Assembly (NCBI GenBank): GCA_041653115.1 | Contig: JBAZGA010000001.1 | Location: forward strand, 3-64,002 | DNA length: 64,000 nucleotides | Reading direction: 5' to 3' | Origin: Candidatus Omnitrophota bacterium | GTDB taxonomy: Bacteria > Omnitrophota > Gorgyraeia > Gygaellales > Profunditerraquicolaceae | Shown: piece after piece, positions 4,451 through 46,443 of the stretch | Numbering within the stretch: the stretch's first letter is position 1 | How the letters are laid out: every line of letters begins with the position of its first letter | Translations under genes and position numbers: made by a program | Notes under the pieces: model-generated | Told to the model about the DNA's origin: nothing | The model's database searches: none | Seen by the model: only the letters and a program-made list of their open reading frames with translations

Positions 4451-4455
4451 ATCTA

Positions 4456-5169: not shown

Positions 5170-6125
5170 CTCGGATTTTAAATGCCGAACCGCTTGGTTA
5201 TTCAGAAGAAGCAAGGAAAATCATTGTTTCTTTGGGAAAGTTGCATGAAAAGGCATTAAGCCGTAGCGAGCTTATAAGAGTCATAAAAAAATATGATATT
5301 TTAATAACAAGATTCGGTTTTAAGATTGACCGAGACGTTTTGGACGCCGCTACAAGCCTTAAATTTATTGTTACCCCCACTACCGGCCTGGACCATATAG
5401 ATATGGAATACGCGCGGAAAAAGGGTATAGAGGTTATCAGTCTGCAAGGGGAAACCGAATTTTTACGCACTGTGGTTGCGACTGCAGAGCATACCTGGGC
5501 GCTCTTGCTGGCGTTGATCAGGCGGGTCCCCTGGGCATTTCAATCGGTATTAAAAGGTGAATGGAAGAGAGATTCTTTCCGCGGGAATGAGCTGGAGGGA
5601 AAACGATTAGGCATTTTGGGTTTGGGGCGCCTGGGAGAAAAGGTAGCTTTTTATGGCATAGCTTTTGGTATGAAAGTCATGGCTTATGATCCTTACCGTC
5701 AGACCTGGCCGGATGGAATAAGAAGGTGCTTTAACCTGCGCGAGCTGTTATCCCGTTCAGATATTTTTTCCATACATCTTCCGCTGAATAATGAAACGAA
5801 GGGATTGATAGGCAGGAAAGAGTTAAAGACGCTTCCTAAGGGCGCAATAGTTATTAATGCCTCCCGGGGACCGGTATTAGATTCTCTGGCGCTTGCAGGG
5901 CTGTTAAGTTCCGGGCATCTTGGCGGTGCCGCATTGGATGTGCTGGAAGGAGAAGGCAAAGATTTTAAACGACAGCGTCAGAATAGGCTGCTTTTAGCCT
6001 ACGCCAGAAAGAATGAAAACCTGCTGATTACGCCGCATCTGGGGGGAGCGACCAAAGAATCTATGGCTAAGACAGAAATTTTTATAGCAAATAAATTAAA
6101 AAAACACTTGGATTCTTTAAGATGA
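5166..6125 (+). CDS. D-isomer-specific 2-hydroxyacid dehydrogenase (PGDH/glycerate dehydrogenase-like), TTG start
   Basis: NAD-binding 'GILGLGRLGEKVAFYGIAFGMKVMAYDPY' and the catalytic region 'INASRGPVLD...ITPHLGGAT'. Confidence 0.7.
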   Translation: MTRILNAEPLGYSEEARKIIVSLGKLHEKALSRSELIRVIKKYDILITRFGFKIDRDVLDAATSLKFIVTPTTGLDHIDMEYARKKGIEVISLQGETEFLRTVVATAEHTWALLLALIRRVPWAFQSVLKGEWKRDSFRGNELEGKRLGILGLGRLGEKVAFYGIAFGMKVMAYDPYRQTWPDGIRRCFNLRELLSRSDIFSIHLPLNNETKGLIGRKELKTLPKGAIVINASRGPVLDSLALAGLLSSGHLGGAALDVLEGEGKDFKRQRQNRLLLAYARKNENLLITPHLGGATKESMAKTEIFIANKLKKHLDSLR

Positions 6126-7816
6126 AATTTAAAACAGCGGTAAAGAAGAGATTGAATTTAATGATTTTTAGGGACCTTTATTTTTTATACGCCTATCATA
6201 AAAATTTAGTCCAGCAGGTCCAAATATTGAGAGATTACCTAAAATTAAAAAATAATTCCAAATTTTTAAGATATAAAGGTGACTGCAGCTTAAACAGAAA
6301 AGTCTTAGTGGTGAGCTTGACTTCAGATTTTCCTTATCAGATCAAACTGGAGGCGATATTAGCCAAGGCCCTGCAACTTGCCGGGTGCAGCGTTCAGGTT
6401 TTAACTTGGAAGCACTCCTTTTGGTCTAAAAAGTATTTCAGATTATTCGGAATTAATAAATTTATGAATTTCGAAGAATATTTCCATGATAACGGAGCGG
6501 ATAAGCCGGAAGAATCTTTAAGCGGCTTTTTATCAAAAAAAATTAATTTTCGGGAAGTAAAGAACTGGAGGTATAAGGGATGCCGTATAGGACAGCAAGT
6601 CTTAAGTGCGCTGGCTAGGAAGGACTATAGCACCCCGGATTTATCAGACAGTAAAAGTCGCGAGTTGTTTGACCGTTATTTAATGCGGCAGATCAGCGCA
6701 GTTGATGCGGCCGAATGGTTACTTGATAAAGAAAAGCCCGATATTTTGCTTTTTTGCGAAGCCAACGGTTTAATCTACGGAGCTGTATTTGATTTCGCGT
6801 TTAAGAGGGGTTTGAATATCGTGCAATTTGCCCGGGCCTTAAGAGAGGATTCCCTTATATTTAAGAAGTTTAATCCCGAATCATTCGGGTTACATCCTAA
6901 TTCCATATCAAAAAGCACGTTTGAAGAGATAAAAAAAATACCCTGGTCGGAAAAGTATGAGCGTATCCTCTGGGAAGAATTTTCCCTGCGTTATGGAAAA
7001 AAGGAGCACGCCAGCCATAGAGATAAAGGAGGAGAAGTCAATAATGAAGCGGAGCGGATAATAAAACAGTTAGGCCTGGATAAAAATAAAAAAACCGCGG
7101 TTATCTTTCCGCATGTGCTTTGGGATGCCAACCTGTATTACGGCGAGGATATCTTTACGGATTATGAGGAATGGTTTATAGAGACGGTAAAGGCGGCCTG
7201 TAATAATCCAAAAGTAAACTGGATAATTAAGCTTCACCCCGCGAATATATGGAAGAGAAGACGCGAAAAAATAAAAAGCGAACTGAGAGAAGTTACACTC
7301 ATCAAAGAGAAGGTCGGAAATTTGCCTCCTCATGTTTACCTTCTTTACCCCGAAGCAAAGATAAGCACATTTTCTTTATTTAAAATTGCCGATTATGGGA
7401 TTACAGTAAGGGGGACCGTGGGAATGGAGATGCCCTGTTTCGGCGATGTTGTTTTTACTGCGGGAACAGGAAGATATTCCGGCCTGGGTTTTACCAACGA
7501 TTCTGCTTCTAAAGAGGATTATTTAGATAAACTCTCAAGAATCCAGGATTTTTTGCCTTTAACCGAAGAGCAGGTCCTTTTAGCCAAGAAGCACGCTTAT
7601 GCGGTATTTGTTTTACGCCCATGGCGCAAACGCAGTTTTGAAGCAAATTTGGACTATAACCTTAAAGGCATCCATCCATTAGACCATAAATTTAATATTC
7701 TTGTTAATTCATCGAATGAATTATCGGCGGCAGAAGACCTGAATAAATTTTCCAATTGGGTATTGAACTCAAACAGCCCGGATTATTTAGAGCGGATCAA
7801 AGATGAAAATCCTTAA
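6122..7816 (+). CDS. Hypothetical large protein, putative GT-B-like glycosyltransferase (Capsule_synth/KpsS/TagF-like C-terminus)
   Basis: 564 aa with no strong family match by eye. C-terminal 'IADYGITVRGTVGMEMPCFGDVVF' resembles the donor-binding stretch of KpsC/KpsS/TagF-type GT-B enzymes. It shares this motif pattern with the ORFs at 35198 and 44476. Confidence 0.3.
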   Translation: MKFKTAVKKRLNLMIFRDLYFLYAYHKNLVQQVQILRDYLKLKNNSKFLRYKGDCSLNRKVLVVSLTSDFPYQIKLEAILAKALQLAGCSVQVLTWKHSFWSKKYFRLFGINKFMNFEEYFHDNGADKPEESLSGFLSKKINFREVKNWRYKGCRIGQQVLSALARKDYSTPDLSDSKSRELFDRYLMRQISAVDAAEWLLDKEKPDILLFCEANGLIYGAVFDFAFKRGLNIVQFARALREDSLIFKKFNPESFGLHPNSISKSTFEEIKKIPWSEKYERILWEEFSLRYGKKEHASHRDKGGEVNNEAERIIKQLGLDKNKKTAVIFPHVLWDANLYYGEDIFTDYEEWFIETVKAACNNPKVNWIIKLHPANIWKRRREKIKSELREVTLIKEKVGNLPPHVYLLYPEAKISTFSLFKIADYGITVRGTVGMEMPCFGDVVFTAGTGRYSGLGFTNDSASKEDYLDKLSRIQDFLPLTEEQVLLAKKHAYAVFVLRPWRKRSFEANLDYNLKGIHPLDHKFNILVNSSNELSAAEDLNKFSNWVLNSNSPDYLERIKDENP

Positions 7817-9631: not shown

Positions 9632-9646
9632 AGAAGGCGGGAGTTA

Positions 9647-10969
9647 ATGAGAGAGGGTTCCGACGTCGTATTAATCAGGGCTAAGGGTTATTTTTCTTTT
9701 GAGAAGGCGCCGCCTATCGGGATTACTTGTATAGCGTCATACATCTCAGATAAATACAGCGTAAAAATTTTTGACCGGGAGCGAAACCCAAACGAGGATT
9801 ACGTAGATTTTATAAAGAATAAAATAGTTCCTCTTAACCCCAGGATAATCGGAATAAGCGCGGTAAGCGCCCAGATAAAAGACGCCTTGATGATAGGCAG
9901 ATTAGCAAGCCAGTATTTACCAAAAGCAAAAATAGTTTTCGGGGGGGTGCATTTTTCTTCGGTCCCTGAAGACGGCTTAAAATCCGGCCATGCCGTTATC
10001 GTGGGGGAAGGTGAAGTTGTGTTTAAGGAGTTATGCGGCTTACCCGAAGAAAGGATAAAGGGCGTATTTTACGGCAGACCTTTGGAAAATTTGGACGAGA
10101 TACCTATTCCTGCTGACGAATTCATCCTTGCTTCGCAAGAGCCCAAGGATGGCGAATATTTATTTTTATCTTCCAGGGGATGCCCGTTTAATTGCACTTA
10201 TTGCCTGTCCAGGGACAGCAAGCAGAGACAGATACGTCTTCACTCCATAGACTACGTTGTTTCCTATCTGCAAAAAGTCCGCCAGCTTTATCCCGATATT
10301 AAAAAGGTCTGGTTCGTAGACGATGTTTTTATCGTAAATGAAGAACGGGTAATTGAATTCTGCGATAAGAGCAGCAAGGCCAATTTAAATTTTGAATATT
10401 CATTTTTTGCGCACGCCAATTATGTCAAGAAGATAGCGTTATTTAAAAAGATGGTTCGGCACAATTTTAACTGTGTCTATATAGGTATAGAATCGGGAGA
10501 CAACGGGATTCTTAAGAAAATAAAGAAAAACACCACGGTAGAAGTCATAGAGAAGGCTGTAAGGATTTTAAAAAAATCCGGATTATACTGCGTAGCCACT
10601 TATATGATAGGAAATATTTCGGAAACAAAGAAGACGGTACTCGATACCATAAACTTCTCCAGAAGGCTGGGGATACCGGCAATTTTTAATTTTGCCGAGC
10701 CCTTTCCGGGGACTGAGTTTTTCAATGAGGTCGAAAATGAGCCGCAGGTGGGTAAGCGTATCACTGAGGACTTCCGCTCAATAAATGAGATAACCTTTGT
10801 GCCAAGGGATTTGGACGAGAAAACCATGCTGGAATTAAGAAATGAGGCAGAAAAATACAAGCCTTATAAGTATCTAATGTCTTACTATCTTAAACACCCG
10901 CGCAAGGGTTTAGTAAAGATAAAAAATAGGCTGAATAGGCTCTTAGTTAAAGCGGGGCGACAGAGATGA
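9647..10969 (+). CDS. B12-binding-domain radical SAM protein (class B radical SAM methyltransferase-like)
   Basis: N-terminal cobalamin-binding-like Rossmann region ('VVLIRAKGYFSF...IGITCIASYI'). A radical SAM cluster motif follows: 'SSRGCPFNCTYCLS' (CxxxCxxC). Confidence 0.65.
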   Translation: MREGSDVVLIRAKGYFSFEKAPPIGITCIASYISDKYSVKIFDRERNPNEDYVDFIKNKIVPLNPRIIGISAVSAQIKDALMIGRLASQYLPKAKIVFGGVHFSSVPEDGLKSGHAVIVGEGEVVFKELCGLPEERIKGVFYGRPLENLDEIPIPADEFILASQEPKDGEYLFLSSRGCPFNCTYCLSRDSKQRQIRLHSIDYVVSYLQKVRQLYPDIKKVWFVDDVFIVNEERVIEFCDKSSKANLNFEYSFFAHANYVKKIALFKKMVRHNFNCVYIGIESGDNGILKKIKKNTTVEVIEKAVRILKKSGLYCVATYMIGNISETKKTVLDTINFSRRLGIPAIFNFAEPFPGTEFFNEVENEPQVGKRITEDFRSINEITFVPRDLDEKTMLELRNEAEKYKPYKYLMSYYLKHPRKGLVKIKNRLNRLLVKAGRQR

Positions 10970-11709: not shown

Positions 11710-11714
11710 TCGCC

Positions 11715-12572: not shown

Positions 12573-12575
12573 AGA

Positions 12576-14102
12576 GTGCGGTTGCCGGTAGTTTTTTTTA
12601 TTTTATTCTTACTCGTCATTAACGCTGTCGCTCATTTCCTGCCTTTTGAGCGTTCATCCCTTGCCCCGGATGATTATTATTATCTTCGCTGGATGAAAGA
12701 AGTTAACCCAACGCACTTGTCGGATTATTTTAAAATTTCTCCGGACCGGCCGATAGCGCATATGCTTATCAACGGACTTTTTAAAGTCGTTCAAGATAAT
12801 TCGCAATTAAGCCTGATTTATATTTTTCTAGTCAGCTCGTTTAATCTACTATTGGTTTTTTTCATATTCAAGGCGCTATTTAATAACCTTTCTTTGGCTT
12901 TTATCGGTTCTCTTATCTTCTGCCTGATGCCGAATATGCTGGAAGTTTATCATACTTTTACCTATGCTTTTCCCGCTACGCACATCGGCGTTTACCTGGC
13001 CAGTTTTCTTTTTTATCTTTATTTTAATAAGAAAAAGAAAATAATCTATCTTGTTTTCTCGCTAGCGACATATACGGCAGGCCTGCTTGCCTATGAGGTA
13101 GGATTTTTTCTGCCTGTAATCTTTTTGGCTTACAATATTTTATACCTAAAGGAAAGCCCTAAAAAACACCTGCTTTATTTTACGATACCCGCATTCTTTT
13201 ATGCCTTATTGCGGCTGAGCAGCGCCCTTAGTTTTTCCGGCGTCTCTACTGCCGCGATTCCCCGGCAGATAGCCTTTTCGTTGTCGCCTTTCATCGACCT
13301 TTTTCACCAGTATTTGGGCAGGTATATGATGCGGAATATCCTTTACGGAATTTATAAATTTTTTGATATGGATTTAAGTTTACGCTTATTTATTATATTC
13401 ATGGATATTATTATTGTGGCAAGCTTATTTTTTCTCTTGAAGAAGGTTAATTTAGAAAAAGTTAGTAAGCGCCTGCTGATATTTGCTTTTTGGGTATTTT
13501 CCGCGTTTCTTCTGCCTATTGCGTTATACGGCAGCGGGGTAGGCGGGAGGCATTTGGTATTGCCGTCAATAGGTTTTGTTATTTTCCTGATCTGGCTCTT
13601 GGAAAGAACAGGCAGATACTGGCGGCTTACCTTTTTGGCTTTTGTTTCCCTGGCATTGATAATCTGCCAGGGGAATGCCTGGATACAGGTCATCGCCTGC
13701 AGGATAAACGGCGCCATATATGAAACAATGAAAGAAAAAAAGAGTCAGTTGCTTGCCGCGGGAAACATTGTAATTGATACCAAAAGCTTTGCCGATAATA
13801 TTGATTTCACCTGGAAGATAACAGAACATAATGTCCTTAATACTTATTATGGGGCTCAGGCATTTGAAGAGTGGATGTTTGAAAATATGGCTAAGTTAAT
13901 TACCGGCGATAATAATAAAGCGGTATATGCCGCAATTGGCAGCGTGATATCCGAAGACGGCTGGCTTAAATTTGAGATTGCCGGAGAACGGGAATACCGC
14001 CGCATCCTTAAGAAGACAGTCATTCTGCCCGCTCAAGGCTCTGTGATAATTGATTTTAAGACAGTTTATAATAAGGGTTTTAAAAACGGATTAAGGATAT
14101 AG
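12576..14102 (+). CDS. Polytopic membrane protein (putative GT-C-like glycosyltransferase or polymerase), GTG start
   Basis: 508 aa with at least 10 predicted TM helices in the first ~370 aa, followed by a soluble C-terminal domain. This architecture is typical of GT-C / PMT / ArnT-like enzymes. Confidence 0.35.
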   Translation: MRLPVVFFILFLLVINAVAHFLPFERSSLAPDDYYYLRWMKEVNPTHLSDYFKISPDRPIAHMLINGLFKVVQDNSQLSLIYIFLVSSFNLLLVFFIFKALFNNLSLAFIGSLIFCLMPNMLEVYHTFTYAFPATHIGVYLASFLFYLYFNKKKKIIYLVFSLATYTAGLLAYEVGFFLPVIFLAYNILYLKESPKKHLLYFTIPAFFYALLRLSSALSFSGVSTAAIPRQIAFSLSPFIDLFHQYLGRYMMRNILYGIYKFFDMDLSLRLFIIFMDIIIVASLFFLLKKVNLEKVSKRLLIFAFWVFSAFLLPIALYGSGVGGRHLVLPSIGFVIFLIWLLERTGRYWRLTFLAFVSLALIICQGNAWIQVIACRINGAIYETMKEKKSQLLAAGNIVIDTKSFADNIDFTWKITEHNVLNTYYGAQAFEEWMFENMAKLITGDNNKAVYAAIGSVISEDGWLKFEIAGEREYRRILKKTVILPAQGSVIIDFKTVYNKGFKNGLRI

Positions 14103-14111
14103 GGGAGCTCT

Positions 14112-19913: not shown

Positions 19914-19914
19914 G

Positions 19915-23880: not shown

Positions 23881-23881
23881 A

Positions 23882-24589: not shown

Positions 24590-24628
24590 TTGCAATGAGA
24601 CAAATACAAAAATCAGGAGGAAAATAAT

Positions 24629-27637: not shown

Positions 27638-27640
27638 AAA

Positions 27641-29692: not shown

Positions 29693-29693
29693 T

Positions 29694-30707: not shown

Positions 30708-30716
30708 AGAATATTT

Positions 30717-31436: not shown

Positions 31437-31445
31437 GAGGTAGAA

Positions 31446-32120: not shown

Positions 32121-32134
32121 AAGGTTCAAAGCAA

Positions 32135-33199: not shown

Positions 33200-33204
33200 T
33201 TATT

Positions 33205-34254: not shown

Positions 34255-34255
34255 A

Positions 34256-35197: not shown

Positions 35198-37156
35198 ATG
35201 CCAAACAAGATTATTGTTTTTGAGAAAATTTCAGATTTTTTCCGGCCTTTCTTAAGATGTTATTCTTTATTTGGATATAAAGTTTATTATTTGAGAGCAT
35301 CGCAAAAAAGCCTATCTAAAAAATGGGTTATAGATTATGAAAATAAAGGTTATATTTCTCGGATTAATCCCGATTGCCAGTTTTCTTACGATAAAGTTTT
35401 TTACCCGGATATGGCTTTTTCTAATATCGAAAATATATACCGGTCAGTCAGCGCCGAATCCGAAGCGATAAAGAGGGTAGTTTATTTATACCAAGATGCC
35501 CATGTTAATTTAGCCTTAAAAAAGAAGCTGATTTTTGAACTTTCAAGATTTTATTTTTTAAATACCCTATTAAATGAATTAGGTAAACAATTAAGTTTTA
35601 AGAGCTTTTATTTTGTACCCGGGGATGGCAACATTTTTAATCCTATAAACAATGATCCCCTTTCCTCTTATAATCAATTATTAAAATTAGTTAAAAAAAA
35701 TAAGCCATCATCTCTAAAAGAGACTAATTGTAGTTTCCCTTTATGGTATGTTTGCTTTAGTTTTATGAGAAATATATGTGAAATATCGGTATTTTACTTA
35801 AAATTATCCGGCTTTCTGATTTTATTAACCTACAGTTATTTATTTAAAAAAAATACTGCTAAAGCAAAATGCAAAAATTATAAATATTTAATCTCGATTA
35901 TGGCCCCACGAAGACAATTTTCTAACCAAGTTCAGAAGGTCGATTTCTTAGTAGATGAAAAATATATACGCAAGGAAGATACGCTTTTCTTTTATGCAAA
36001 GAAACTAAAAGATGAGTATCTCGAATATTGTGAAAGAAACGGCCTAAATTTAATAGATGGTTTTTTTCAACAATTCGATTTTAACAAAGCCGAAATAAGA
36101 AAAGTGTTTAAGGAAGTTTTTAAAACATTATTGAGCAGGCCGATCATGGTTCATTCTGTAAGAGAAGGTGTTTTAGAATCATTTTTATTTTATATCTGGT
36201 GGCAGACATTCGCCGATAAATACGCAGTTAAAAACTTCATAGGTTATCATGATTTTAGTTCCCAGGCTATTTGTAGAAATATAATCCTCAAAAAGAAGAC
36301 GCGGACAAAAACGTGGTTTTATTTAGATTCAGGGAGTTCTGCCGCTTTTTTTAGAACTAAGCAGGAAGATGAGTTATATAGAAGTTTTCATTTTATGTAT
36401 TTATATTTCGATTACTTTCCCTATTGGTCAGAGCCGCTGGTCAGCTATTTTAAAGACCACGATCTGGCGGTAGACAAATATCTTGCTACCGGTTGCCTGT
36501 GGTCAGAACATGTACGATTAATCAGTGAGAAGGTTATAAGGTCCGATCTTCTAGAAAGATTAGAGAGCTTTGGATTCAAAGACGGTCATAAAATTATCGC
36601 TGTTTTTGATTCCAGCTACGATTATGATGTCATTGATTCGTACGAGCACGGAATCGCTTTTATACAAGACATTTTACGTCTCGCCGACGATGTCCCCGAG
36701 GCGTTCATTATATTCAAAGAGAAAAAAGCGAGAAGTTATGTCCGAAAATATTGCCCAGCTCTTGCGCGGCTATATGAAAGTCTCCAGAATCATGCAAGAT
36801 TTTATTTACCGCCGGACGCCGGCAGCACATCCGAGGCCATTGCTTTTAGCGACTTGACAATTTCTTTTCCTTTTACCTCCACTACCGTTGAGGCCCTTGC
36901 TGCCAGGAAGAAAGCGCTATTTTACGATCCTTCTGGCAGGTTAAAAAGCATCTTCTATGATAACATCCCCGATTTAGTCTGCCATGGCTACGATAATCTT
37001 TTGGCAATGACAAAAAGGCTTTTGTTTGAAGCTAAGACGGGAGAATACGATTTGTACCTCGATAGATTTATCAAGGGTAATATAGACCCTTTTCTGGATG
37101 GTAAGGGGATAACTAGGTTTAGAGAGTTTATAAATTATTATAATAATGTTGTCTAG
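35198..37156 (+). CDS. Hypothetical large protein, putative GT-B-like glycosyltransferase (TagF/KpsS-like C-terminus)
   Basis: 652 aa, very AT-rich. C-terminal 'FSDLTISFPFTSTTVEALAARKKALFYDP' matches the D-[LY]-x-I-[ST]-x-x-[ST]-[ST]-x-x-E-A-L pattern of TagF/Capsule_synth-type enzymes and is shared with the ORFs at 6122 and 44476. Confidence 0.3.
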   Translation: MPNKIIVFEKISDFFRPFLRCYSLFGYKVYYLRASQKSLSKKWVIDYENKGYISRINPDCQFSYDKVFYPDMAFSNIENIYRSVSAESEAIKRVVYLYQDAHVNLALKKKLIFELSRFYFLNTLLNELGKQLSFKSFYFVPGDGNIFNPINNDPLSSYNQLLKLVKKNKPSSLKETNCSFPLWYVCFSFMRNICEISVFYLKLSGFLILLTYSYLFKKNTAKAKCKNYKYLISIMAPRRQFSNQVQKVDFLVDEKYIRKEDTLFFYAKKLKDEYLEYCERNGLNLIDGFFQQFDFNKAEIRKVFKEVFKTLLSRPIMVHSVREGVLESFLFYIWWQTFADKYAVKNFIGYHDFSSQAICRNIILKKKTRTKTWFYLDSGSSAAFFRTKQEDELYRSFHFMYLYFDYFPYWSEPLVSYFKDHDLAVDKYLATGCLWSEHVRLISEKVIRSDLLERLESFGFKDGHKIIAVFDSSYDYDVIDSYEHGIAFIQDILRLADDVPEAFIIFKEKKARSYVRKYCPALARLYESLQNHARFYLPPDAGSTSEAIAFSDLTISFPFTSTTVEALAARKKALFYDPSGRLKSIFYDNIPDLVCHGYDNLLAMTKRLLFEAKTGEYDLYLDRFIKGNIDPFLDGKGITRFREFINYYNNVV

Positions 37157-38957
37157 CGCAGAGGATAATAGCTTGAATTCAAAATCTTCTCAAATCCTAT
37201 ATTTTTTGAAACCCTATAAATTATTATATCTGGGTACTGTGTGTCTCAGTCTTTTGGTGGCGGCGTTAGATGCCTTTAATCTCGCCCTTCTTTTACCGGT
37301 GATGAATTACATTTTCGGAATCTTTTCTTCTCCCATTTCATCTTCCAGCCGTCTTTTGCTTTATATCGATAAAATAATTTCTTTGCTGCCATTTCAACAG
37401 AAAATAATTTCCGCCATATCTCTTTTAATATTTTTTACGATAATCAAATGCGCCTTCAGCATCTTAAACGAGTCTTTAATCAGCTACGCAAGCGCAAAGA
37501 TGCTTTATGATACAAGGAAGAACTTGTTGAATAAATATGCGCAAGCTGACTATCAATATTTTCTTGACCATAAACAAGGGGAAATGAACCATAATTTATT
37601 AGTTGCTTCGGGAAAGTTATCTTTTTTATTCATGAAACTGCCCTTACTGTTAGCAGAAATACTTAAAGTATCGGCTATAATAATAATTTTATTTACCATA
37701 AATTTATATGTCACTTTATTTTTTATCCCGTTAGCCATAATTTTTAATTTCTTTATCGGCTTTTTATCTAGGAATGTGTCGCATATAATAGGTATAAAAA
37801 AGACCCAGGCAAGTAATGAACAGGCGGTAATTTTCCATGAGTTTATCAGCGGCGCCAAACAGATCAAAGTATATCTGGCTAAAGACAGGTGGTTGAAGGG
37901 GTTTGATATTCAGAATAAAGAATTTAGCAAGTTATATATGAAAGACTATATCTGGCTTTCGATCCCGCGTAATATATTCGAATTAGTAACCATCTCGATA
38001 CTCTTTGGCCTGGTTTTGTTTATTGATTTGCAGCACACGGCAAATATAACAAAAGAATTGCCTACATTAGGCGTTTTTGCAATGGCCTTATTGAAACTCT
38101 TCCCTTCATCGGCTAATATCGCCAGAATAAAAATGGAGATCATCGGAACCTTGCCAGAACTCCAGGCAACCTATAAAGTGCTCAATATGCGGTCCGAAAG
38201 CATTAAAGCCGGAAGCGCCGAATTTAGAAACCTGAATAAGGGCATTAGTTTCGAAAATGTTTGCTTTACTTATAAAAATAACATTCTTGTCTTAGATAAT
38301 ATTAATATTCAATTTGAGAAGAATAAGGTCACGGCGATTGTGGGTATTTCTGGCTCAGGAAAGACTACTATCGTGAATTTGCTTTTAGGTCTATATCAGC
38401 CTACGCGGGGTAGGATTCTGATTGATGATATGGTAGCATTAAATGAATATAAAGTAGAAAGCTGGTTAAGCAAAATAGGAATAGTTACCCAGGATTCTTT
38501 TATCTTTCATTCAACAGTAGAAGATAATATCATTTTTGGATCAGCAGGGGCGAAAAGAGAGCAGGTTGAAGAGGCGTCCCGCTTAGCAAATGCTCATGAT
38601 TTTATAATGGGCCTGCCGCAGGGTTATAAGACTATTGTGGGAGAAAGAGGAATGAAGCTGTCTGGGGGGCAGCAGCAGCGGATCGCGATCGCCAGGGCAA
38701 TTTTAAGGAATCCCCAGATTCTTATTTTTGATGAAGCAATGAGTAACCTGGACAGCGCTTCCGAAAGGCTGATTCATGAATCTCTGAAGAATATAATTAA
38801 GAATCGTACAATTATTCTAATAGCGCATAGATTAAGTACGATTATCGATGCCGACAAAATTATTATAATTAAGGATGGAGCTATACACGCAGAGGGTCGG
38901 CATGAACAATTACTTCAGAAAGATGCCTTTTACAGGGATTTATATGCCGGAAGATAA
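37146..38957 (+). CDS. ABC exporter, fused permease and ATPase (MsbA/type I exporter-like)
   Basis: An N-terminal 6-TM domain, Walker A 'GISGSGKTTIVNLL', ABC signature 'LSGGQQQRIAIARAIL' and Walker B 'ILIFDEAMSNLD'. Confidence 0.75.
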   Translation: MLSSAEDNSLNSKSSQILYFLKPYKLLYLGTVCLSLLVAALDAFNLALLLPVMNYIFGIFSSPISSSSRLLLYIDKIISLLPFQQKIISAISLLIFFTIIKCAFSILNESLISYASAKMLYDTRKNLLNKYAQADYQYFLDHKQGEMNHNLLVASGKLSFLFMKLPLLLAEILKVSAIIIILFTINLYVTLFFIPLAIIFNFFIGFLSRNVSHIIGIKKTQASNEQAVIFHEFISGAKQIKVYLAKDRWLKGFDIQNKEFSKLYMKDYIWLSIPRNIFELVTISILFGLVLFIDLQHTANITKELPTLGVFAMALLKLFPSSANIARIKMEIIGTLPELQATYKVLNMRSESIKAGSAEFRNLNKGISFENVCFTYKNNILVLDNINIQFEKNKVTAIVGISGSGKTTIVNLLLGLYQPTRGRILIDDMVALNEYKVESWLSKIGIVTQDSFIFHSTVEDNIIFGSAGAKREQVEEASRLANAHDFIMGLPQGYKTIVGERGMKLSGGQQQRIAIARAILRNPQILIFDEAMSNLDSASERLIHESLKNIIKNRTIILIAHRLSTIIDADKIIIIKDGAIHAEGRHEQLLQKDAFYRDLYAGR

Positions 38958-38960
38958 CTG

Positions 38961-39746: not shown

Positions 39747-39768
39747 TCTATTGAATAAGGAGCCATCA

Positions 39769-40500: not shown

Positions 40501-40506
40501 GGAGCA

Positions 40507-41550
40507 ATGATGGGATTTTCAGAAAAGGATTTAATTAGACGGATAGAGTCGGATATCAAGTTGCAATGTAATACAAAAGATGAGCTGATTCCAGGTAATT
40601 TAGGTAATTCTTGGGAACCGATATTTTTAAAAGAAACCGGAAATTTGATAAATCACGATTTATCAATTAATCTGAACGTTCTTAAGAATTTCAGAAAATC
40701 ATTTGTTTTACTTGTTGATTTCCCGATAGGCAGGCAATATCTAAATATCAGAAATTTACTGGATGGTCAAAGAAGGGGGCAACAAAAAGTTATTAAGAGA
40801 CACTGGCAAATTATAAAAGAGCATAATTATGATTATTTACTGAAGAGGTATCCCTGTTCTTTAGTCGGGAACCCCTATATTTATAGATATAATGGATATT
40901 CCTTTACCTGGCGATGGATTAAGAATGTTTATTATGCAGGGCTCTTTAAAAAAATTTTAGCAGAAAAAATAAGACAGGATTTTATAATTATGGATATTGG
41001 TTGTGGTTACGGGATATTTTCTTATATATTAAAGAATGAGTTTCAAAAAAGTCACCATGTTCTGGTCGACCTTCCTCAGCAGCTTGTTTTAGCACATTAT
41101 TTCTTAGCTAAACATTTCCCCGATGCGAGAATCGCAACTTACAAAGATATTTTTGAGGTAAATAAAATTGACCGTAATTTTTTGAATAAATACGATTTTA
41201 TTTTAATTCCCTGGCATATGTATACTAAAATAGAGCAAGGGAGTATAGATGTCTTGACTAACTTTGTATCTTTCGCCGAGATGGGGAGAAAGTATTTTGA
41301 CTATTATTTAAAACAAGAGCCATTCTTGAGTGTCAAGTACTTTTTTACCATCAATCGCTTTGTTTCTGCCCCGACATATGATAACGGGCTGACCATACTG
41401 GATTATCAGCTCGCTTCTTTCAGGGCGCTGCATTTTGCCATATTTCCTTTGGTTATGGAGAGATATAGAAGAAGCCGCTTTTTTTTCTATAAATACTTTC
41501 CGCACGAATCTCAACTTTTTGAGTTTATCGGAGAAAGACAGAAAATATGA
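40507..41550 (+). CDS. Class I methyltransferase-fold protein with a long N-terminal extension (candidate CmoB-like carboxymethyl/methyl transferase)
   Basis: 'IIMDIGCGYGIFSYIL' is motif I, about 165 aa from the N-terminus, followed by 'LVDLPQQLVLAHYFLAKHFPD'. The layout (a ~120 to 160 aa N-terminal region, then the Rossmann fold) and some aromatic-rich stretches are reminiscent of CmoB. RBS AAGGAG is present upstream, and the gene sits immediately downstream of the cmoA homolog. Confidence 0.4.
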   Translation: MMGFSEKDLIRRIESDIKLQCNTKDELIPGNLGNSWEPIFLKETGNLINHDLSINLNVLKNFRKSFVLLVDFPIGRQYLNIRNLLDGQRRGQQKVIKRHWQIIKEHNYDYLLKRYPCSLVGNPYIYRYNGYSFTWRWIKNVYYAGLFKKILAEKIRQDFIIMDIGCGYGIFSYILKNEFQKSHHVLVDLPQQLVLAHYFLAKHFPDARIATYKDIFEVNKIDRNFLNKYDFILIPWHMYTKIEQGSIDVLTNFVSFAEMGRKYFDYYLKQEPFLSVKYFFTINRFVSAPTYDNGLTILDYQLASFRALHFAIFPLVMERYRRSRFFFYKYFPHESQLFEFIGERQKI

Positions 41551-42482
41551 TACCCCGGAATAATGAATTGCGTTTTGAGATAGCCACTAAATGTAATTAT
41601 CATTGTCTGATCTGCCCCCGTAATAGCATTACTCGTAAACAAGAAATTATGAGCTTAGGTTTATTTAAGAAATTATTGGATAAAATAACCAGTGAGACCT
41701 CTCAATATGATACTTTAACCTTTCCCGGCATGGGTGAGCCATTATTAGACCCTACCATAGAAGACAAGGTTGCTTACGCAAGAAATAAAAAATTCAAAAT
41801 TTTAATTTTGACAAATGGTTCCTTGCTTTCGATTAACAAATTTAATAATTTGGAAGCTCTGGGCGTAGAATCCATAAGAGTAAGTATATATGGCAACGAT
41901 CCCGTAACATACGCAAAGGTGCATGGCCTTAAAAATGGAAAAGTATTCGAAAAGATTAGGTCAAATTTAACCCAGATAGCAAAAATAAAGAAAAAAACCA
42001 AGCTTTTATTAACCTTTAATGTCGTTAATGGGCTGAATGAAGATTGCCTATCTTCCTGGATAGGATACTGGAAAGATAAGGCAGATTTATTAGAGGTGTG
42101 GCGTCCGCATAATTGGGTTAATGGGCGGTCTTACCGGCAGATACAAAACGAGAGACTAAAGACCTGCGGAAGGCCCTGGAATACTCCTTTACAGATTCAG
42201 GTAGACGGTACTGTGAATATGTGCTGTTTTGACTTTAACGGAGAGCTTACTCTTGGGGATTTAAAAAAGCAAAGCCTTAAGGAGGTATTTTCTTCGCCAC
42301 TTTATAAAAAAATCATAAGGCATCATAAGACGGGTGATTTTAAAAATAGTCATTTAATCTGTGAAATGTGCGATCAGAGGAACTCGGATAAAGCAGGGGT
42401 GATGGTATATAGCTCAAATTCTAACATTGATGAACGAATCAGGCAATATTCAACGACGTACATAAATTTTAAAACCCAATAA
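41547..42482 (+). CDS. Radical SAM protein with SPASM-like C-terminal domain
   Basis: 'EIATKCNYHCLICPRNS' (CxxxCxxC) and a C-terminal 'CGRPWNTP...NMCCFDF' auxiliary-cluster-like region. Confidence 0.6.
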   Translation: MIPRNNELRFEIATKCNYHCLICPRNSITRKQEIMSLGLFKKLLDKITSETSQYDTLTFPGMGEPLLDPTIEDKVAYARNKKFKILILTNGSLLSINKFNNLEALGVESIRVSIYGNDPVTYAKVHGLKNGKVFEKIRSNLTQIAKIKKKTKLLLTFNVVNGLNEDCLSSWIGYWKDKADLLEVWRPHNWVNGRSYRQIQNERLKTCGRPWNTPLQIQVDGTVNMCCFDFNGELTLGDLKKQSLKEVFSSPLYKKIIRHHKTGDFKNSHLICEMCDQRNSDKAGVMVYSSNSNIDERIRQYSTTYINFKTQ

Positions 42483-42504
42483 GTATTTATAAGAATTAAA
42501 TAAA

Positions 42505-43647
42505 ATGAATAGAATAATAAAAAAAGCTTTTCCCGAAAACATAAAAGCGCCTTTACGAAAAATAAGAGGCGTATATCGAGGGACTCTCGCTGCATATAAA
42601 AAATACGCAGTTCCAAAATTCTTAATTCATTTTGTCACAACTAGATGTCAGTTAAATTGCAAGCATTGTTTTTGTCCCTCTGAGTCAGACGCTTCCTCAA
42701 AAGATAAGCTTTCTTTGTCAGAACTAAAAAAGGTAATTTTGTCTTTTAATGCCCCCATTGATACGGTCGTTTTAACCGGGGGAGAGCCGTTTTTGCATAA
42801 AGACTTAGTCGAGATGGCGCTATTGTATAATTCACTGAATAAAGCCAGGATCATCTCAATAAATACGAACGGATATGCCACAGATACGATCGTTAATAGC
42901 GTCAATAAAATACTGAATGATTTAGATAATAATTCATGCCTCTCTCTGCAGGTTTCGCTCGATGGCCCTGAGAGGATTCATAATGATATCCGAGGCAATC
43001 CGTATTCATTCCAAAATGCCGCTGAAACAATAAGACGCCTTAAAAAAATACAGGTAGCGAATGATAAAATGCATATTCATACGTTATGTATAATTAATCA
43101 AAAAAATTGCAATTATCTAAAGGAATTGTCCAGCTATTGTATGGAAAATCTTAATATGCCTATCTATTTTGAGCTGGTGAGGAGAAATATCTGTGATTTT
43201 CATTCAGTAGAGTATAAACCAAGGGATGGATTAACCGGCGATTTATCTTTTGATTTAAAACGAGCCTTTAATGATATCGTACATATTTATAATCAGCAGG
43301 ATAAGCGCTTTAAAAGCAAATCCTGTTCAAGCATGATAGGCAAAATAAGGGATGAATTTACTATTGCCCGGGAAGGCAAGAGGTTATTTGCATGCATGGC
43401 GGGCAACTACGCAGGCGCACTCTTCAGCAACGGAGATGTGAGCCCCTGTGAATTATTGGATTTCCGCCTTAACTTAAGAGACTTTGATTATAATTTCCCA
43501 AAGATCTGGAATTCACCCCGGATGCGAGCCGTTGTTGAGAAAATAAGGCGTTCCTGCTTTTGTACCCTTGGCTGTTTTGTCGGTTTATCGCGTCAAAGGA
43601 TTGACTATCAACTGAAAACACTTTTTGCCAAACCGAAATTTTTATAA
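42505..43647 (+). CDS. Radical SAM protein with SPASM-like C-terminal domain
   Basis: 'VTTRCQLNCKHCFC' (CxxxCxxC), and C-terminal 'CMAGNYAGALFSNGDVSPCE' plus 'CFCTLGCFVG'. Confidence 0.6.
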   Translation: MNRIIKKAFPENIKAPLRKIRGVYRGTLAAYKKYAVPKFLIHFVTTRCQLNCKHCFCPSESDASSKDKLSLSELKKVILSFNAPIDTVVLTGGEPFLHKDLVEMALLYNSLNKARIISINTNGYATDTIVNSVNKILNDLDNNSCLSLQVSLDGPERIHNDIRGNPYSFQNAAETIRRLKKIQVANDKMHIHTLCIINQKNCNYLKELSSYCMENLNMPIYFELVRRNICDFHSVEYKPRDGLTGDLSFDLKRAFNDIVHIYNQQDKRFKSKSCSSMIGKIRDEFTIAREGKRLFACMAGNYAGALFSNGDVSPCELLDFRLNLRDFDYNFPKIWNSPRMRAVVEKIRRSCFCTLGCFVGLSRQRIDYQLKTLFAKPKFL

Positions 43648-43648
43648 A

Positions 43649-44623
43649 ATGGTTATTGCTGATAGAGCTATGGCGGTATCTTACGTAATTCCCGTTTTTA
43701 ACCGCTCCCGTTATATAAAAGAAGTTATAGAAGCAATAAACCGGCAGAGCGGCATTAACCGTTCTGAGGTTATCATAATTGACGATGCCTCATCCGATAA
43801 CCCGGAGAAAGAAATAAATCCATTCAAACAGGATAATATCAAAGTTTTTTTTAATCGCCAAAACATGGGTGCTGCTTATTCAAGAAATTTAGGTTTCAGA
43901 ATGTCAAAACATGAATATATCGCTTTTATCGACAGCGATGTAATCCTCCTGCCCGATACAACGGTTAAAATGCTTGAAATTTGTCAGGAATACGACATCG
44001 CGCATGTTGTGCCATTTTGGCCCAACGGCAAACCGATTGTTTCATTAGAAAACAGCAAAGAGTATCCCAGGATATCGGCCTGTTATATGATGAAAAAAGA
44101 AACCCTGCAATATCTGGACAGAATCGGTCAGTTATACGATGAGAATTACGGTATCTACCTTGAAGATATTGATTTTTTCTTCCGTTGCTCTCTTTTCGGC
44201 CTAAAGGCAAAGTGTATCGAAGAGATGAATGCACTCCATATTGCATTCGATTTCACTAAAGACACAAGCTACAGGCATTACCTTTGCTTAAGAAACAATA
44301 TCTATTCCAATATAAAATACCTGCGTATAAAAATACCTGGTAAGCCGGATTTTAAAAATGTCTTTTCATTTAAATCTATAATTTTAAAAATAATAGCGAT
44401 GCTATTTAACTACGATCTTTATAAAAAGTATTCTGCCCAGATATCCGGAAAAAAAAGACATCTTAATAATATTCAATGGATGCGGGATCCATCCCTGAAG
44501 ATTACAAGCAGGCATCTGCTTCTTTTTTTTCTGATTCCAAGGGCTATTTTATGGAATATTTTGAATATACATTCCCCTCTAAAAAAGGGGAAACAGCTTG
44601 CCAAACTGATATGCCAAAAATAA
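43649..44623 (+). CDS. Family 2 glycosyltransferase
   Basis: 'VSYVIPVFNRSRYIKEVIEAINRQSGINRSEVIIIDDASSDN' and 'IDSDV' (DxD). ATG 43649 immediately follows the upstream stop. Confidence 0.65.
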   Translation: MVIADRAMAVSYVIPVFNRSRYIKEVIEAINRQSGINRSEVIIIDDASSDNPEKEINPFKQDNIKVFFNRQNMGAAYSRNLGFRMSKHEYIAFIDSDVILLPDTTVKMLEICQEYDIAHVVPFWPNGKPIVSLENSKEYPRISACYMMKKETLQYLDRIGQLYDENYGIYLEDIDFFFRCSLFGLKAKCIEEMNALHIAFDFTKDTSYRHYLCLRNNIYSNIKYLRIKIPGKPDFKNVFSFKSIILKIIAMLFNYDLYKKYSAQISGKKRHLNNIQWMRDPSLKITSRHLLLFFLIPRAILWNILNIHSPLKKGKQLAKLICQK

Positions 44624-46443
44624 TAATATCCATAAATAATAAGAAGCTGCGCAACTTTCTAAATGGTAATAGGGATAATTTTACCGTTCTCAAGGCAGAT
44701 AGCAAAGATAGCAATACGCAGCAATTTTTATCTGAACATAACACCATAGATATATATGATATACCTCAGGCCAGCCGGGATGATTTTGTGCAGTCCTATT
44801 TATCTTTAATCGAAGAACTTTCTTTAATGAATAATGATAAATACTGGTGGGCTTATTCTACTTCTTCAAAAAACAGGCACATGTCAAAGCTGTTTGATCA
44901 CCTGTATATATTTGTATTAATCACAAATGTTATTGAAAAGGTTAAAGAGAGAAATATTATTATCCTGAATCCTCCCAACAGTATCATCAAGCCCCTGGCA
45001 AGATACCTCGATCATAAAAAGAGAGAAACCAGAATAATCGGCAGAATCGGTTTTCCCGATTATCACGAGGCTTTATTTGTTAATATTAATTTCTTCGTAA
45101 ATACGGCTATCAGGATTTATTATATTACCTTCCGCATAATCTTATCGAAAATTCTGCTTTTACATAAATATAACAGGCTTATTTCAGAAAATAAAAGATG
45201 GTTTGTTTTTAGGAGCTGGTTTAATAATCAATCATTCCCGAAAGGCGGGGCTTACCATGATTCATTCTTTGGAGAATTATGTCAATACTTAAAAGAGAGG
45301 AACAGGCCCGTTTTATTAATTGTAGGTATGTTCGGGGTTAAGTTTAGAAATGCTATTTTTGCAATAGCAAAAATAAAAGATTATAGCGTGTTTCCTGTGG
45401 AGTTTTTTTTAAAATGGTCTGATTTATTAAAAGCCATGATTGACGCTTTGAAATCTAAAGTGGTATTAAAAAGAAGCATTCATTTTAAGAATAATCTTGA
45501 TATTTCGGACATAATCCAATATCACCTAAATATAGATTTCTCAAATACCTTATTTTTGAATATACTTTATTTCTATATTTCTAAAAACCTGGCAAATAAT
45601 ATTTTAATAGAGCGGATTTTCTTAACCTCGGAGAATAATTGCTGGGAGAAGATGTGTATTCAGGCGATAAGAGATTTTTCCCGTTTGACGAAGATAATCG
45701 GCTTTCCGCATGCCATAGTTTCACCGGCTAAGTTAAGCATGATATTGAGTGAATATGAGAAAGAAAAGATGCCATTGCCCGATACGCTGGTCACGAATGG
45801 AGAGATTACCAAAGATTTACTTATTAATACCGGGAAATACGATACCAGTATGATTAAGGCGGGTTGTGCATTAAAGTATAAAAAAATTTTAGACCTCAAA
45901 TTAAAAACAAGAAAAATAAGCAATGAAAGAACTTTCCTTGCGGCATTTGAAGGCGTTAACGAATCCGCAGAATTGATAAATTTTATTTATGATTGCTTTA
46001 AAGAAAGTTCCGCCCATAAAGTAATTATTAGACCGCATCCAGCTTTGCCTATAATAAAAATAAGGCAGTATTTAAGGTTTCACCCAGACAGGTTGCCGAA
46101 AAATTTTTCAATAAGCATAAGTAAAGAAAGAAGCCTGATAGATGATTTGTCAATCGCGGATTTCTTATTATACAATGGTTCTACTGTTTCTATAGAAGCG
46201 CTGGCCATGGGAATACCCGTTATCTATATTGATTTAAAGAAGGCGGTCTGCAGCGATCCACTATTTAGTTGTAATTATCTAAAAAAAATAGCAAGCACCA
46301 AAACAGAGTTACAGTTTGCTATAGATTTTTTTAATACTATGGACTCAGGCGAATTTACCAAACAACAGCGGTTAGCAAATGATTATACCAGAAGATATTT
46401 TTACCCCGTTAATGAAAAAAATTTACAAGTATTTCTACAATAA
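44611..46443 (+). CDS. Hypothetical large protein, putative GT-B-like glycosyltransferase (TagF/KpsS-like C-terminus); start uncertain (44476, 44551 or 44611)
   Basis: C-terminal 'IADFLLYNGSTVSIEALAMGIPVIYIDL' matches the same donor-binding-like pattern seen in the ORFs at 6122 and 35198. No other recognisable family was found by eye. Confidence 0.3.
   Translation: MPKIIISINNKKLRNFLNGNRDNFTVLKADSKDSNTQQFLSEHNTIDIYDIPQASRDDFVQSYLSLIEELSLMNNDKYWWAYSTSSKNRHMSKLFDHLYIFVLITNVIEKVKERNIIILNPPNSIIKPLARYLDHKKRETRIIGRIGFPDYHEALFVNINFFVNTAIRIYYITFRIILSKILLLHKYNRLISENKRWFVFRSWFNNQSFPKGGAYHDSFFGELCQYLKERNRPVLLIVGMFGVKFRNAIFAIAKIKDYSVFPVEFFLKWSDLLKAMIDALKSKVVLKRSIHFKNNLDISDIIQYHLNIDFSNTLFLNILYFYISKNLANNILIERIFLTSENNCWEKMCIQAIRDFSRLTKIIGFPHAIVSPAKLSMILSEYEKEKMPLPDTLVTNGEITKDLLINTGKYDTSMIKAGCALKYKKILDLKLKTRKISNERTFLAAFEGVNESAELINFIYDCFKESSAHKVIIRPHPALPIIKIRQYLRFHPDRLPKNFSISISKERSLIDDLSIADFLLYNGSTVSIEALAMGIPVIYIDLKKAVCSDPLFSCNYLKKIASTKTELQFAIDFFNTMDSGEFTKQQRLANDYTRRYFYPVNEKNLQVFLQ

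Follow-up and report, generated by a model that had tools for sequence, protein, structure and literature searches.

Many microbes carry pseudaminic, legionaminic and sialic acids on their capsules, O-antigens, S-layers and flagella. To our knowledge, the enzymes that attach these nonulosonic acids (NulO) are known in only a handful of cases, namely Maf, FlmG, the Tannerella forsythia enzymes, KpsS1 and the sialyltransferase families. One clan of retaining transferases that use CMP (cytidine monophosphate)-activated ulosonic acids comprises KpsC/KpsS (glycosyltransferase family GT107, PF05159), WbbB (GT99), KrkA (GT140) and KpsS1 (GT118). Here we describe three open reading frames, ORFs A, B and C, in a window of 64,000 nucleotides (the whole stretch of DNA that was analysed) from an Omnitrophota metagenome-assembled genome (MAG; contig JBAZGA010000001.1). 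On balance we favour the reading that all three encode glycosyltransferases (GTs) of the GT-B type, belonging to three separate uncharacterised families, each of which is genetically coupled to NulO synthesis.

In KpsC, Asp160 acts as the nucleophile of a double displacement and the His of a His-Pro (HP) motif aids the departure of CMP (PMC10148158). KpsS1 of Acinetobacter baumannii is a retaining pseudaminyltransferase of GT118, so the clan can use a nonulosonic acid (PMC12887879). The HP motif is common to otherwise unrelated CMP-sialic-acid enzymes, in which its His contacts the CMP phosphate (PMC2169525), and it is also present in KpsC and WbbB (PMC10148158) and in the pseudaminic/legionaminic acid (Pse/Leg) transferases of T. 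forsythia (PMC5420450). Deletion of Tanf_01245, whose counterpart in strain 92A2 is BFO_1060, strips a pseudaminic-acid derivative from the O-glycan of T. forsythia (PMC5420450). Loss of this family's T. forsythia members takes away the Pse/Leg residue (PMC5420450).

An earlier note, made from the DNA letters alone, had pointed to the three ORFs and to one sequence block in each. The ORF list confirmed their coordinates and their common + strand, and all three blocks are present:

6122-7816, + strand: ORF A, 564 aa (WC321_00040, annotated as hypothetical protein), divergent protein of the Capsule_synth clan (KpsC/KpsS-like), candidate retaining CMP-nonulosonate transferase
7385-7444, + strand: block IADYGITVRGTVGMEMPCFG of ORF A (residues 422-441), the motif noticed earlier, aligned with 'VVTSQYGFEALLAGKPV' of KpsC
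35198-37156, + strand: ORF B, 652 aa, member of TIGR04417 and PF27878, predicted GT-B fold
36845-36931, + strand: block FSDLTISFPFTSTTVEALAARKKALFYDP of ORF B (residues 550-578; PFTS motif), predicted strand-helix-strand of the C-terminal Rossmann domain
44611-46443, + strand: ORF C, 610 aa (WC321_00210, annotated as hypothetical protein), predicted GT-B fold, candidate CMP-Pse/Leg-type transferase
46153-46230, + strand: block IADFLLYNGSTVSIEALAMGIPVIYI of ORF C, homologous to the block of ORF B by hhalign

Contrary to what had been written, the blocks do not end the proteins: they fall within the last third of each, 70-120 residues short of the C-terminus. Of the two starts proposed for ORF C, the ATG at 44611 (610 aa) is preferred to that at 44476, since 10 of 11 aligned homologues begin at the Met encoded at 44611 (MPKIIIS...). 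The genes had also been called paralog-like. Pairwise BLASTP of the three proteins gave best E values of 0.11, 0.61 and 0.093, none of them significant, and the idea of three paralogs was therefore dropped.

Comparison of profiles with hhalign separated the three pairs. B and C aligned with a probability of 92.6% (E 4.6e-7, the C-terminal 135 columns) when thin alignments were used, and of 94.7% (E 6e-8, 257 columns) with deeper ones (82 + 57 sequences). A and C were borderline (32-35%, E ~4e-4), with HP falling on HP and block on block, and no similarity was found between A and B. A motif common to all three thus stood for B and C, whereas the block TVRGTVGMEMPCFG of ORF A aligned at a borderline level with that of C and not with that of B. 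Together with the structural models described below, these alignments identify B and C as distant homologues with predicted GT-B folds. Both the BLASTP result and the empty comparison of A with B would agree with a chance or compositional resemblance of the blocks among three unrelated proteins. For B and C this is already refuted by the alignment over 257 columns, so that the non-homology of the motif which the earlier note had allowed for does not hold for this pair, and both models put the block on the same strand-helix-strand of a Rossmann domain. The alignment of A with C, HP on HP, also speaks against it, and we give such a resemblance next to no credence.

The strict pattern S/T-S/T-x(2,3)-E-A-L occurs within the window only in B and C. 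In PDB profile searches the block element of family C also aligned with the GT41 O-GlcNAc transferase and with UDP-glucose glucosyltransferase; since it matches both, we read it as a generic GT-B nucleotide-binding element that is no sign of the sugar. The proposal that the motif indicates a GT-B donor domain therefore agrees with the models of B and C, but the motif has no NulO specificity and, judged from these matches, by itself marks just a GT-B domain. The PDB profile searches otherwise yielded motif-length or chance matches (KpsC, E 2.3; GT41, E 0.05-0.12; UDP-glucose glucosyltransferase, E 1.1). Matches to ribosomal uS8 and to neutrophil cytosol factor 2 were judged to be chance, and one of the alignments searched with (A4) gave none.

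ORF A and the KpsC/KpsS clan

ORF A directly follows a set of genes that we call module 1. These genes, and the two short motifs of ORF A discussed below, are:

2504-6125, + strand: module 1, directly 5' of ORF A (Pfam assignments)
2504-3301, + strand: short NeuB-like synthase (best match NeuB, below cut-off)
3302-4450, + strand: NeuC (NeuC_NnaA, 416.6 bits, above the equivalog cut-off)
4456-5169, + strand: CMP-sugar synthetase (best match, below cut-off)
5166-6125, + strand: 2-hydroxyacid dehydrogenase
7112-7126, + strand: H331-V-L-W-D335 of ORF A, aligned with QxxxD of KpsC, H331 on the Gln and D335 on the Asp
7235-7240, + strand: H372-P373 of ORF A (KLHPAN), the HP motif, invariant in 43 sequences

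The likeness to KpsC/KpsS suspected earlier was supported for ORF A. A database search found more than 1353 homologues of family A. ORF A itself scores 17.2 bits against PF05159 (E 0.0039), below the gathering cut-off of 20 bits, and 29 of 43 family members match this model at E <= 0.01, the best at 2.5e-7. Because ORF A lies below the cut-off while its relatives match, the profile scores make it a distant relative of Capsule_synth and not a member by the curated threshold. With KpsC and KpsS reference sequences from E. coli CFT073, hhalign aligned family A with both KpsC modules (E 5.5e-4 with KpsC-N, 4.5e-4 with KpsC-C; probability 30-33%) in the same register. In this register F-S/P-H331-V-L-W-D335 of A stands opposite V-D-Q156-T-F-N-D160 and G-Q-V-E-D-D of KpsC, K-L-H372-P373 opposite K-V-H194-P195 of KpsC, 'KPHPD' of KpsC-C and the HP of family C, and T428..E436 opposite V-T-S-Q-Y-G-F-E of KpsC. 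In the 43 A-family sequences D335 is invariant and H331 is kept in at least 90%; T428, R430, G431, G434 and E436 of the block are invariant as well.

ORF A therefore resembles both modules of KpsC (GT107) in having (Q/H)xxxD, an HP 34-37 residues downstream and a T-x-(S/R)-(S/G)-x-x-G-x-E block. KpsC adjoins kdsB, and ORF A likewise adjoins the gene of its presumed CMP-sugar synthetase. Unlike KpsC, it has His in place of the motif Gln and ~200 extra N-terminal residues, and unlike its KpsC/KpsS/KpsS1 relatives it is linked to neuB/neuC and not to genes for Kdo (3-deoxy-D-manno-octulosonate) or Pse.

By analogy with KpsC and WbbB, ORF A would take a CMP-sialic-acid-type sugar made by the upstream NeuC, NeuB and CMP-synthetase and transfer it with retention. 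Asp335 would attack C2 of the donor and His372 of the HP motif would help CMP to leave; the resulting covalent Asp-sugar adduct would then be resolved by the acceptor hydroxyl. It is quite likely that ORF A is a nonulosonate transferase, and by the same analogy it probably transfers the module-1 sugar with retention of configuration.

A by-eye mapping of H258-P259 and R290-Y291 of ORF A onto 'His94' and Lys133-Tyr134 of KpsC was abandoned because residue 94 of CFT073 KpsC is Tyr, its HP lies at 194-195, and hhalign places H372-P373 of A there. In the text of the KpsC paper (PMC10148158) the general acid is given as 'His94', whereas the HP of the CFT073 protein is H194-P195, 34 residues past Asp160; this 'His94' looks like a numbering slip or an extraction error.

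Predicted folds and conserved residues of ORFs B and C

ORF B is a full member of TIGR04417/PF27878 ('polysaccharide biosynthesis PFTS motif protein'), a family that is named but has no known function. It scores 156.6 bits against TIGR04417 (cut-off 100; E 1e-45; residues 103-603 on model positions 65-519 of 522), and PF27878 is precomputed for exactly this protein. An exhaustive profile search returned 1268 cluster representatives at E <= 1e-3, of which 401 still matched at E <= 1e-30; a word-indexed search had found four relatives only. ORF C has 12 indexed relatives, and the peptide EN[NH][PCS]WE[KR][MA] drew 82 relatives from metagenomes. The AlphaFold2 model of B, from an alignment of 82 sequences, has a predicted local distance difference test score (pLDDT) of 93.3 and a predicted template-modelling score (pTM) of 0.93, and the model of C has values of 84.9 and 0.84.

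Foldseek comparison with the PDB, the check named in the earlier note, matched both models to many GT-B structures with a probability of 1.00 and E values of 4e-9 to 1e-6. At E <= 0.001 there were 177 matches for B and 305 for C, and the best 50 listed were almost all GT-B enzymes. Those of B were GT-B enzymes only (probability 1.00), including trehalose-6-phosphate synthases (OtsA), UDP-GlcNAc 2-epimerases and TagF, none of which stands out. The 50 listed for C (E 4e-9 to 8e-7) included BshA, MshA, PglA, CalG, 2-epimerases and the TagF-like structures 8qoy and 8va1. The two models have the same order of elements: ahead of the GT-B core come a small alpha/beta unit at the N-terminus and a long hydrophobic helix (~182-216 in B, ~154-192 in C). 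The block forms strand 553-556, helix 561-568 and strand 573-577 in the model of B, and strand 518-521, helix 526-532 and strand 537-540 in that of C.

The best Foldseek matches of both models include UDP-GlcNAc 2-epimerases, NeuC (5xvs) being one of them, and B lies directly after biosynthetic genes and co-occurs with a CTP_transf_3-aminotransferase fusion. These facts would suit a role of B and/or C as GT-B-fold enzymes of NulO biosynthesis or modification, whether as decorators of the CMP-sugar or, after the manner of NeuC and PseG, as epimerases or hydrolases. We consider such a role improbable: the window already encodes PseG and NeuC, both scoring above cut-off, and B and C are 250-300 residues longer, each with a hydrophobic helix that suggests membrane association. 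In addition, relatives of C match a glycosyltransferase family, and the flippase gene found between B and C in other loci fits action on lipid-linked glycans.

The motifs outside the blocks of the two candidate transferases are:

36716-36727, + strand: K507-E-K-K510 of ORF B, at the end of the first C-domain strand (502-507), where family C has R-x-H-P
45631-45648, + strand: E341-N-N-C-W-E346 of ORF C (motif ENN[PCS]WE), candidate acid/base of catalysis, in the loop that follows an N-domain strand
46036-46041, + strand: H476-P477 of ORF C (IIRPHPALP), the HP motif, after the first C-domain strand

Family C keeps E341, W345, E346 and H476 without exception in 57 sequences, and R474 and P477 in at least 90% of them. 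In the model of C the ENNxWE motif lies between strand 333-339 and helix 344-356, the helix starting within it. NCBIfam models matched the 12 C-family members as follows: TIGR04326 all 12 (best 3e-20), TIGR04396 seven and NF046086, the BFO_1060 family, five (best 4.9e-9), every score being below the cut-off of its model. Since C scores far below the cut-offs of TIGR04326 and TIGR04396, these scores place it in a separate, unnamed sister family of TIGR04326. NF046086 matches ORF C over residues 445-578, the C-terminal domain, and H476-P477 lies inside this stretch; this profile match makes ORF C a remote relative of the only family of Pse/Leg glycan transferases with genetic validation. The T. 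forsythia proteins Tanf_01245/TFUB4_00887 (NF046086) share with C an HP in the conserved C-terminal region and the linkage to Pse/Leg. Their model has only 365 positions, as against the 610 aa of C with its extra N-terminal alpha/beta region and hydrophobic helix, and the N-terminal halves are unrelated by sequence. TIGR04326 (O_ant_LIC13510, a Leptospira O-antigen region protein) has 602 positions, similar to the length of C, and matches the same region; TIGR04396 is described as a surface carbohydrate biosynthesis protein, and both of these families are themselves functionally uncharacterised.

Among known CMP-sialic-acid enzymes, those of GT38, GT52 and GT80 are, like C, two-Rossmann GT-B proteins with an HP after the first C-domain strand and a Ser/Thr-rich loop ~45 residues downstream (PMC2169525). 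They differ in their acidic N-domain motif, D/E-D/E-G as against ENNxWE in C; B has neither the HP nor D/E-D/E-G. None of their structures was among the top 50 Foldseek matches of B or C, and the sialyltransferase families of Pfam did not match A, B or C at E <= 1. Maf, another comparison that had been proposed, matched in neither Pfam nor NCBIfam at E <= 1. Comparison of C with KpsC by hhalign picked up the motif only (2%).

It is probable that ORF C is a nonulosonate transferase. It would transfer the CMP-pseudaminic-acid derivative made by module 2, described below, to a lipid-linked glycan on the cytoplasmic side of the membrane, ahead of its export. His476 would sit on the CMP phosphate, and E341 and E346 are candidates for the base.

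In family B, S551, D552, S561, E565 and A566 of the block, which includes FPFTSTT at residues 556-562, are kept in at least 90% of 82 sequences, as are K507 and K509; D253, D405 and D471 are near-invariant too. HP being tied to CMP-sugar binding, the donor of B, which lacks this motif, is uncertain. B, and to a lesser extent A and C, could be an ordinary transferase for nucleoside diphosphate (NDP) sugars or CDP-alcohols, or a TagF-like phosphotransferase, that builds the acceptor glycan while other enzymes attach the NulO. Besides the Lys-Glu-Lys-Lys of B at the place where CMP-sugar enzymes have HP, the best Foldseek matches of B are UDP-glucose enzymes (OtsA) and TagF, those of C include TagF-like 8qoy and TarL, the quoted motif also matches GT41 and UDP-glucose glucosyltransferase, and the window holds at least eight other GT genes. 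Yet no match to PF04464 (TagF) at E <= 1 was found for A, B or C. The TagF structure 3l7j, put forward as a likeness by the earlier note, ranks only 23rd for B (E 8e-7), level with unrelated GT-B families. TagF/TarL proteins are, like B and C, large and membrane-associated with extra N-terminal regions; their likeness to B (3l7j) and to C (8va1 and 8qoy) is nevertheless generic and no closer than that of dozens of GT-B structures. No genes for CDP-glycerol or CDP-ribitol synthesis were found near ORFs A, B and C. The synteny of all three families with NulO genes across phyla, the invariant His of the HP motif in A and C, and the kinship of C with the BFO_1060 family all argue against ordinary donors. 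So does the fact that none of the window's other GTs falls into a known family of NulO transferases. We therefore judge ordinary donors unlikely, although less so for B. That ORF B is itself a nonulosonate transferase is a tentative assignment, with the odds slightly against it. It may be an initiating partner of C, or else a second transferase whose donor differs and is possibly an NDP-sugar.

Gene neighbourhoods of the three families

The three genes had been described as adjoining two CMP-sugar modules. A is directly 3' of the NeuB/NeuC/synthetase genes and B directly 3' of the Pse genes, but C lies 7.5 kb further on. The relevant features around B are:

24629-35197, + strand: module 2, pseudaminic-acid pathway, directly 5' of ORF B (Pfam)
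27641-29692, + strand: 683-aa fusion of a CTP_transf_3 cytidylyltransferase (in the position of PseF) and a class-III aminotransferase
37146-38957, + strand: MsbA/PglK-like ATP-binding cassette (ABC) exporter, directly 3' of ORF B (Pfam and NCBIfam)

Module 2 encodes PseB, PseC, an aldo-keto reductase, the CTP_transf_3-Aminotran_3 fusion, PseG, a WbqC-like protein, a PIG-L protein, PseI, a radical S-adenosylmethionine (SAM)/SPASM protein and a methyltransferase. PseB, PseC, PseG and PseI all score above their NCBIfam equivalog cut-offs, which marks the module as a bona fide pseudaminic-acid pathway. The aminotransferase part of the fusion resembles glutamate-1-semialdehyde aminomutase, and the aldo-keto reductase gene adjoins it. 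The fusion accompanies the PFTS-family (B) genes in most B loci (L004, L005, L006, L025, L052, L086 and L087), which may point to one more amino modification of the nonulosonate, perhaps introduced while it is a CMP-sugar.

For family A we examined six loci outside the window (40-54% identity), from MAGs of Deltaproteobacteria, Gaiellaceae, Verrucomicrobiae and Peregrinibacteria and from two further contigs. Epimerase_2 (NeuC) and CTP_transf_3 lie within a few genes of A in all six, and the one locus without NeuB is cut at its end. With the window included, NeuC and CTP_transf_3 adjoin A in 7/7 loci and NeuB in 6/7, the usual order being NeuB-NeuC-synthetase-A.

The NeuB-like synthase of module 1 is only 265 aa long, lacks the C-terminal SAF domain that PseI (32099-33199) carries, and scores below the equivalog cut-offs of both NeuB and PseI. 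Among the six other loci of family A, one is cut before the gene; NeuB has 328-342 aa in the remaining five, and a SAF match is listed in four. The Gaiellaceae MAG holds a second, divergent family-A paralog (locus L091, 10658-12289, - strand; hhalign 99.2%, E 3.5e-19) beside a CMP-sugar synthetase. This paralog keeps the HP (RAHP) and has Glu at the place of the nucleophile Asp335; the two genes together recall the KpsS/KpsC pair.

The content of B and C loci was determined by searching them with the window proteins by tblastn. Of six B loci, found independently from a 5-sequence alignment, two came from MAGs of Omnitrophota and one each from a Planctomycetales MAG, a Chloroflexi MAG, an unclassified uncultured bacterium and Methanolobus vulcani. 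Five of them have a PseI-like gene, the exception being the 4.6-kb Chloroflexi contig. In 12 loci a C homologue has a homologue of B 18-3047 bp upstream of it and on its own strand. As 10 of these 12 were reached through C, the count is too high; counted without this ascertainment bias, the pair is present in 10 of 40 C-anchored loci (>=3 kb upstream) and in two of five B-anchored loci with enough downstream sequence. In seven of the eight loci with an intervening gene (L005, L006, L008, L017, L025, L041 and L083), that gene encodes a Polysacc_synt (Wzx-type) flippase. Of the C loci of at least 15 kb, 18 of 21 have a CTP_transf_3-like gene within 10 kb, and 20 of 21 have some gene of a NulO pathway. 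The three families thus travel with nonulosonate pathways across phyla. B and C would act in one cassette of Pse genes, B, flippase or ABC exporter, and C, in a lipid-linked, flippase-coupled pathway.

In the window, the slot directly after B is taken by the MsbA/PglK-like ABC exporter instead of the flippase, which gives two export solutions at one conserved position. M. vulcani, a cultured methanogen, has a B-C pair 179 bp apart (locus L087, NZ_FNCA01000002.1, 10001-13676), and its locus also contains PseC-like and PseI-like genes and the CTP_transf_3-aminotransferase fusion.

The recurrent pairing of B and C, the shared order of their secondary-structure elements and the loss of HP in B would also suit a catalytically inactive B that binds the acceptor or stabilises C, in the manner of GtfB with GtfA, or of Asp1 in accessory Sec systems; Foldseek also matched C to the Asp1 structures 5vaf and 6lnw. 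We hold this to be very improbable. K507, K509, S551, D552, S561 and E565 of B are near-invariant at GT-B nucleotide positions, and the acidic D253, D405 and D471 are kept. Three loci have B without C within 5.7-10 kb downstream, and the family is large (1268 representatives).

Candidacy as NulO transferases, the central proposal of the earlier note, accordingly draws on the synteny with NulO genes for A, B and C and on the kinship with BFO_1060 for C, and is least secure for B, which has no HP. A number of observations weigh against reading the three families as NulO transferases. The alignments of A with KpsC are weak, given their hhalign probabilities, hhalign found no similarity between A and KpsS, and profile search of the PDB with slice 205-352 of A, the upstream catalytic region, returned chance matches only. 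ORF C scores 43 bits against TIGR04326 (E 2e-11; cut-off 250), all 12 of its relatives are likewise below that cut-off, and against NF046086 it scores 22.7 bits (E 4.7e-5; cut-off 200). The Foldseek matches of the B and C models are generic, including UDP-GlcNAc 2-epimerases, which are not transferases, as well as NDP-sugar and CDP-glycerol enzymes. ORF B lacks not only the HP motif but any invariant His among 82 sequences. In the loci, the 12 B-C pairs overstate the association, NeuB is within 10 kb in only six of the 21 long C loci, and the frequencies of NulO genes near A, B and C are uncalibrated against unrelated glycosyltransferases. A literature search on PFTS, TIGR04417, TIGR04326 and PF27878 found no paper.

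Where C homologues occur without B, a Pfam census of 124 nearest neighbours, likewise uncalibrated, listed mostly methyltransferases, GFO_IDH_MocA, PseB/LegB-type dehydratases, CTP_transf_3, NTP_transf_3 and CBS. We take this set to be typical of legionaminic-acid clusters such as the Campylobacter ptm/leg genes. A GFO_IDH_MocA oxidoreductase gene lies directly 3' of the C homologue in ~10 B-less metagenomic loci (L007, L010, L013, L022, L028, L030, L051, L071 and L073 being those recorded) and is 56-71% identical between loci. C and GFO_IDH_MocA probably form a distinct sub-cassette of the legionaminic-acid type.

A GT-B CMP-ulosonate transferase is already known as a kind of enzyme, and B is known as a named family. 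What is new is the assignment of the three families, together with candidate residues for catalysis (predicted: D335 and H372 in A; H476, E341 and E346 in C; K507 and K509 in B), the neuBCA-A cassette and the Pse-B-flippase-C cassette, found in bacteria and one methanogen. For TIGR04417, new points are the predicted GT-B fold, the homology to family C and the conserved Pse-B-flippase-C cassette. Three large database families thereby gain a testable assignment, and the conserved cassette could be cloned as a unit. Our literature search for a retaining sialyltransferase found no paper. A bolder joint proposal has two parts. In the first, family A, whose more than 1300 homologues belong mostly to uncultivated phyla, would comprise the first retaining transferases for NeuC/NeuB-derived sialic-acid-type sugars, working through an Asp335 adduct and giving beta-linked products beyond those of the known inverting sialyltransferases. 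In the second, Pse genes, PFTS protein, flippase and HP-containing GT-B protein would together make up an unrecognised two-enzyme installer of pseudaminic-acid derivatives on lipid-linked glycans in bacteria and methanogenic archaea. Taken as a whole, this proposal is rather unlikely. If A proved to be retaining with a NeuB/NeuC-derived sugar, the double displacement of the Kdo transferases would be extended to sialic-acid-type donors, and glycosidic linkages not yet sought in environmental bacteria would be predicted; such enzymes would also be useful in the chemoenzymatic synthesis of nonulosonate glycans.

The surrounding glycan cluster

ORFs A, B and C belong to a single surface-glycan cluster of ~57 kb, which runs on one strand from ~430 to 57.6 kb; nearly all long ORFs of the window are on the + strand, and the housekeeping genes pgk and tpi start after the cluster, at 57688. 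Several GT2 and GT4 genes and an amidotransferase of the asparagine-synthase type are also encoded in it. No flagellin genes were found in the window. Other features are:

430-1851: Wzx-like flippase
9647-10969, 33205-34254, 41547-42482 and 42505-43647, + strand: four radical-SAM genes (one B12-binding, three SPASM-type)
12576-14102, + strand: 508-aa protein with ~8 hydrophobic segments, near the two PMT_2-like proteins
16092-17327 and 17320-18687: two PMT_2-like membrane proteins
47250-49142, + strand: GT4 (TuaH-like) domain fused with a DUF218 (SanA/ElyC-like) domain
52387-54189: Glycos_transf_4 initiating transferase (phosphoglycosyltransferase)
54176-55381: Wzy_C/O-antigen-ligase-like protein
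55384-57633, + strand: 749-aa protein closing the cluster, with ~14 hydrophobic segments around a spermine/spermidine-synthase-like domain

The 508-aa protein at 12576-14102 had no Pfam or NCBIfam match at E <= 1; from its hydrophobic segments it is possibly an unrecognised polymerase or GT-C-type enzyme. At least nine genes with methyltransferase domains share the cluster with the four radical-SAM genes, and this gene content suggests that the sugars of the cluster are heavily C- or O-methylated, or changed by other radical chemistry.

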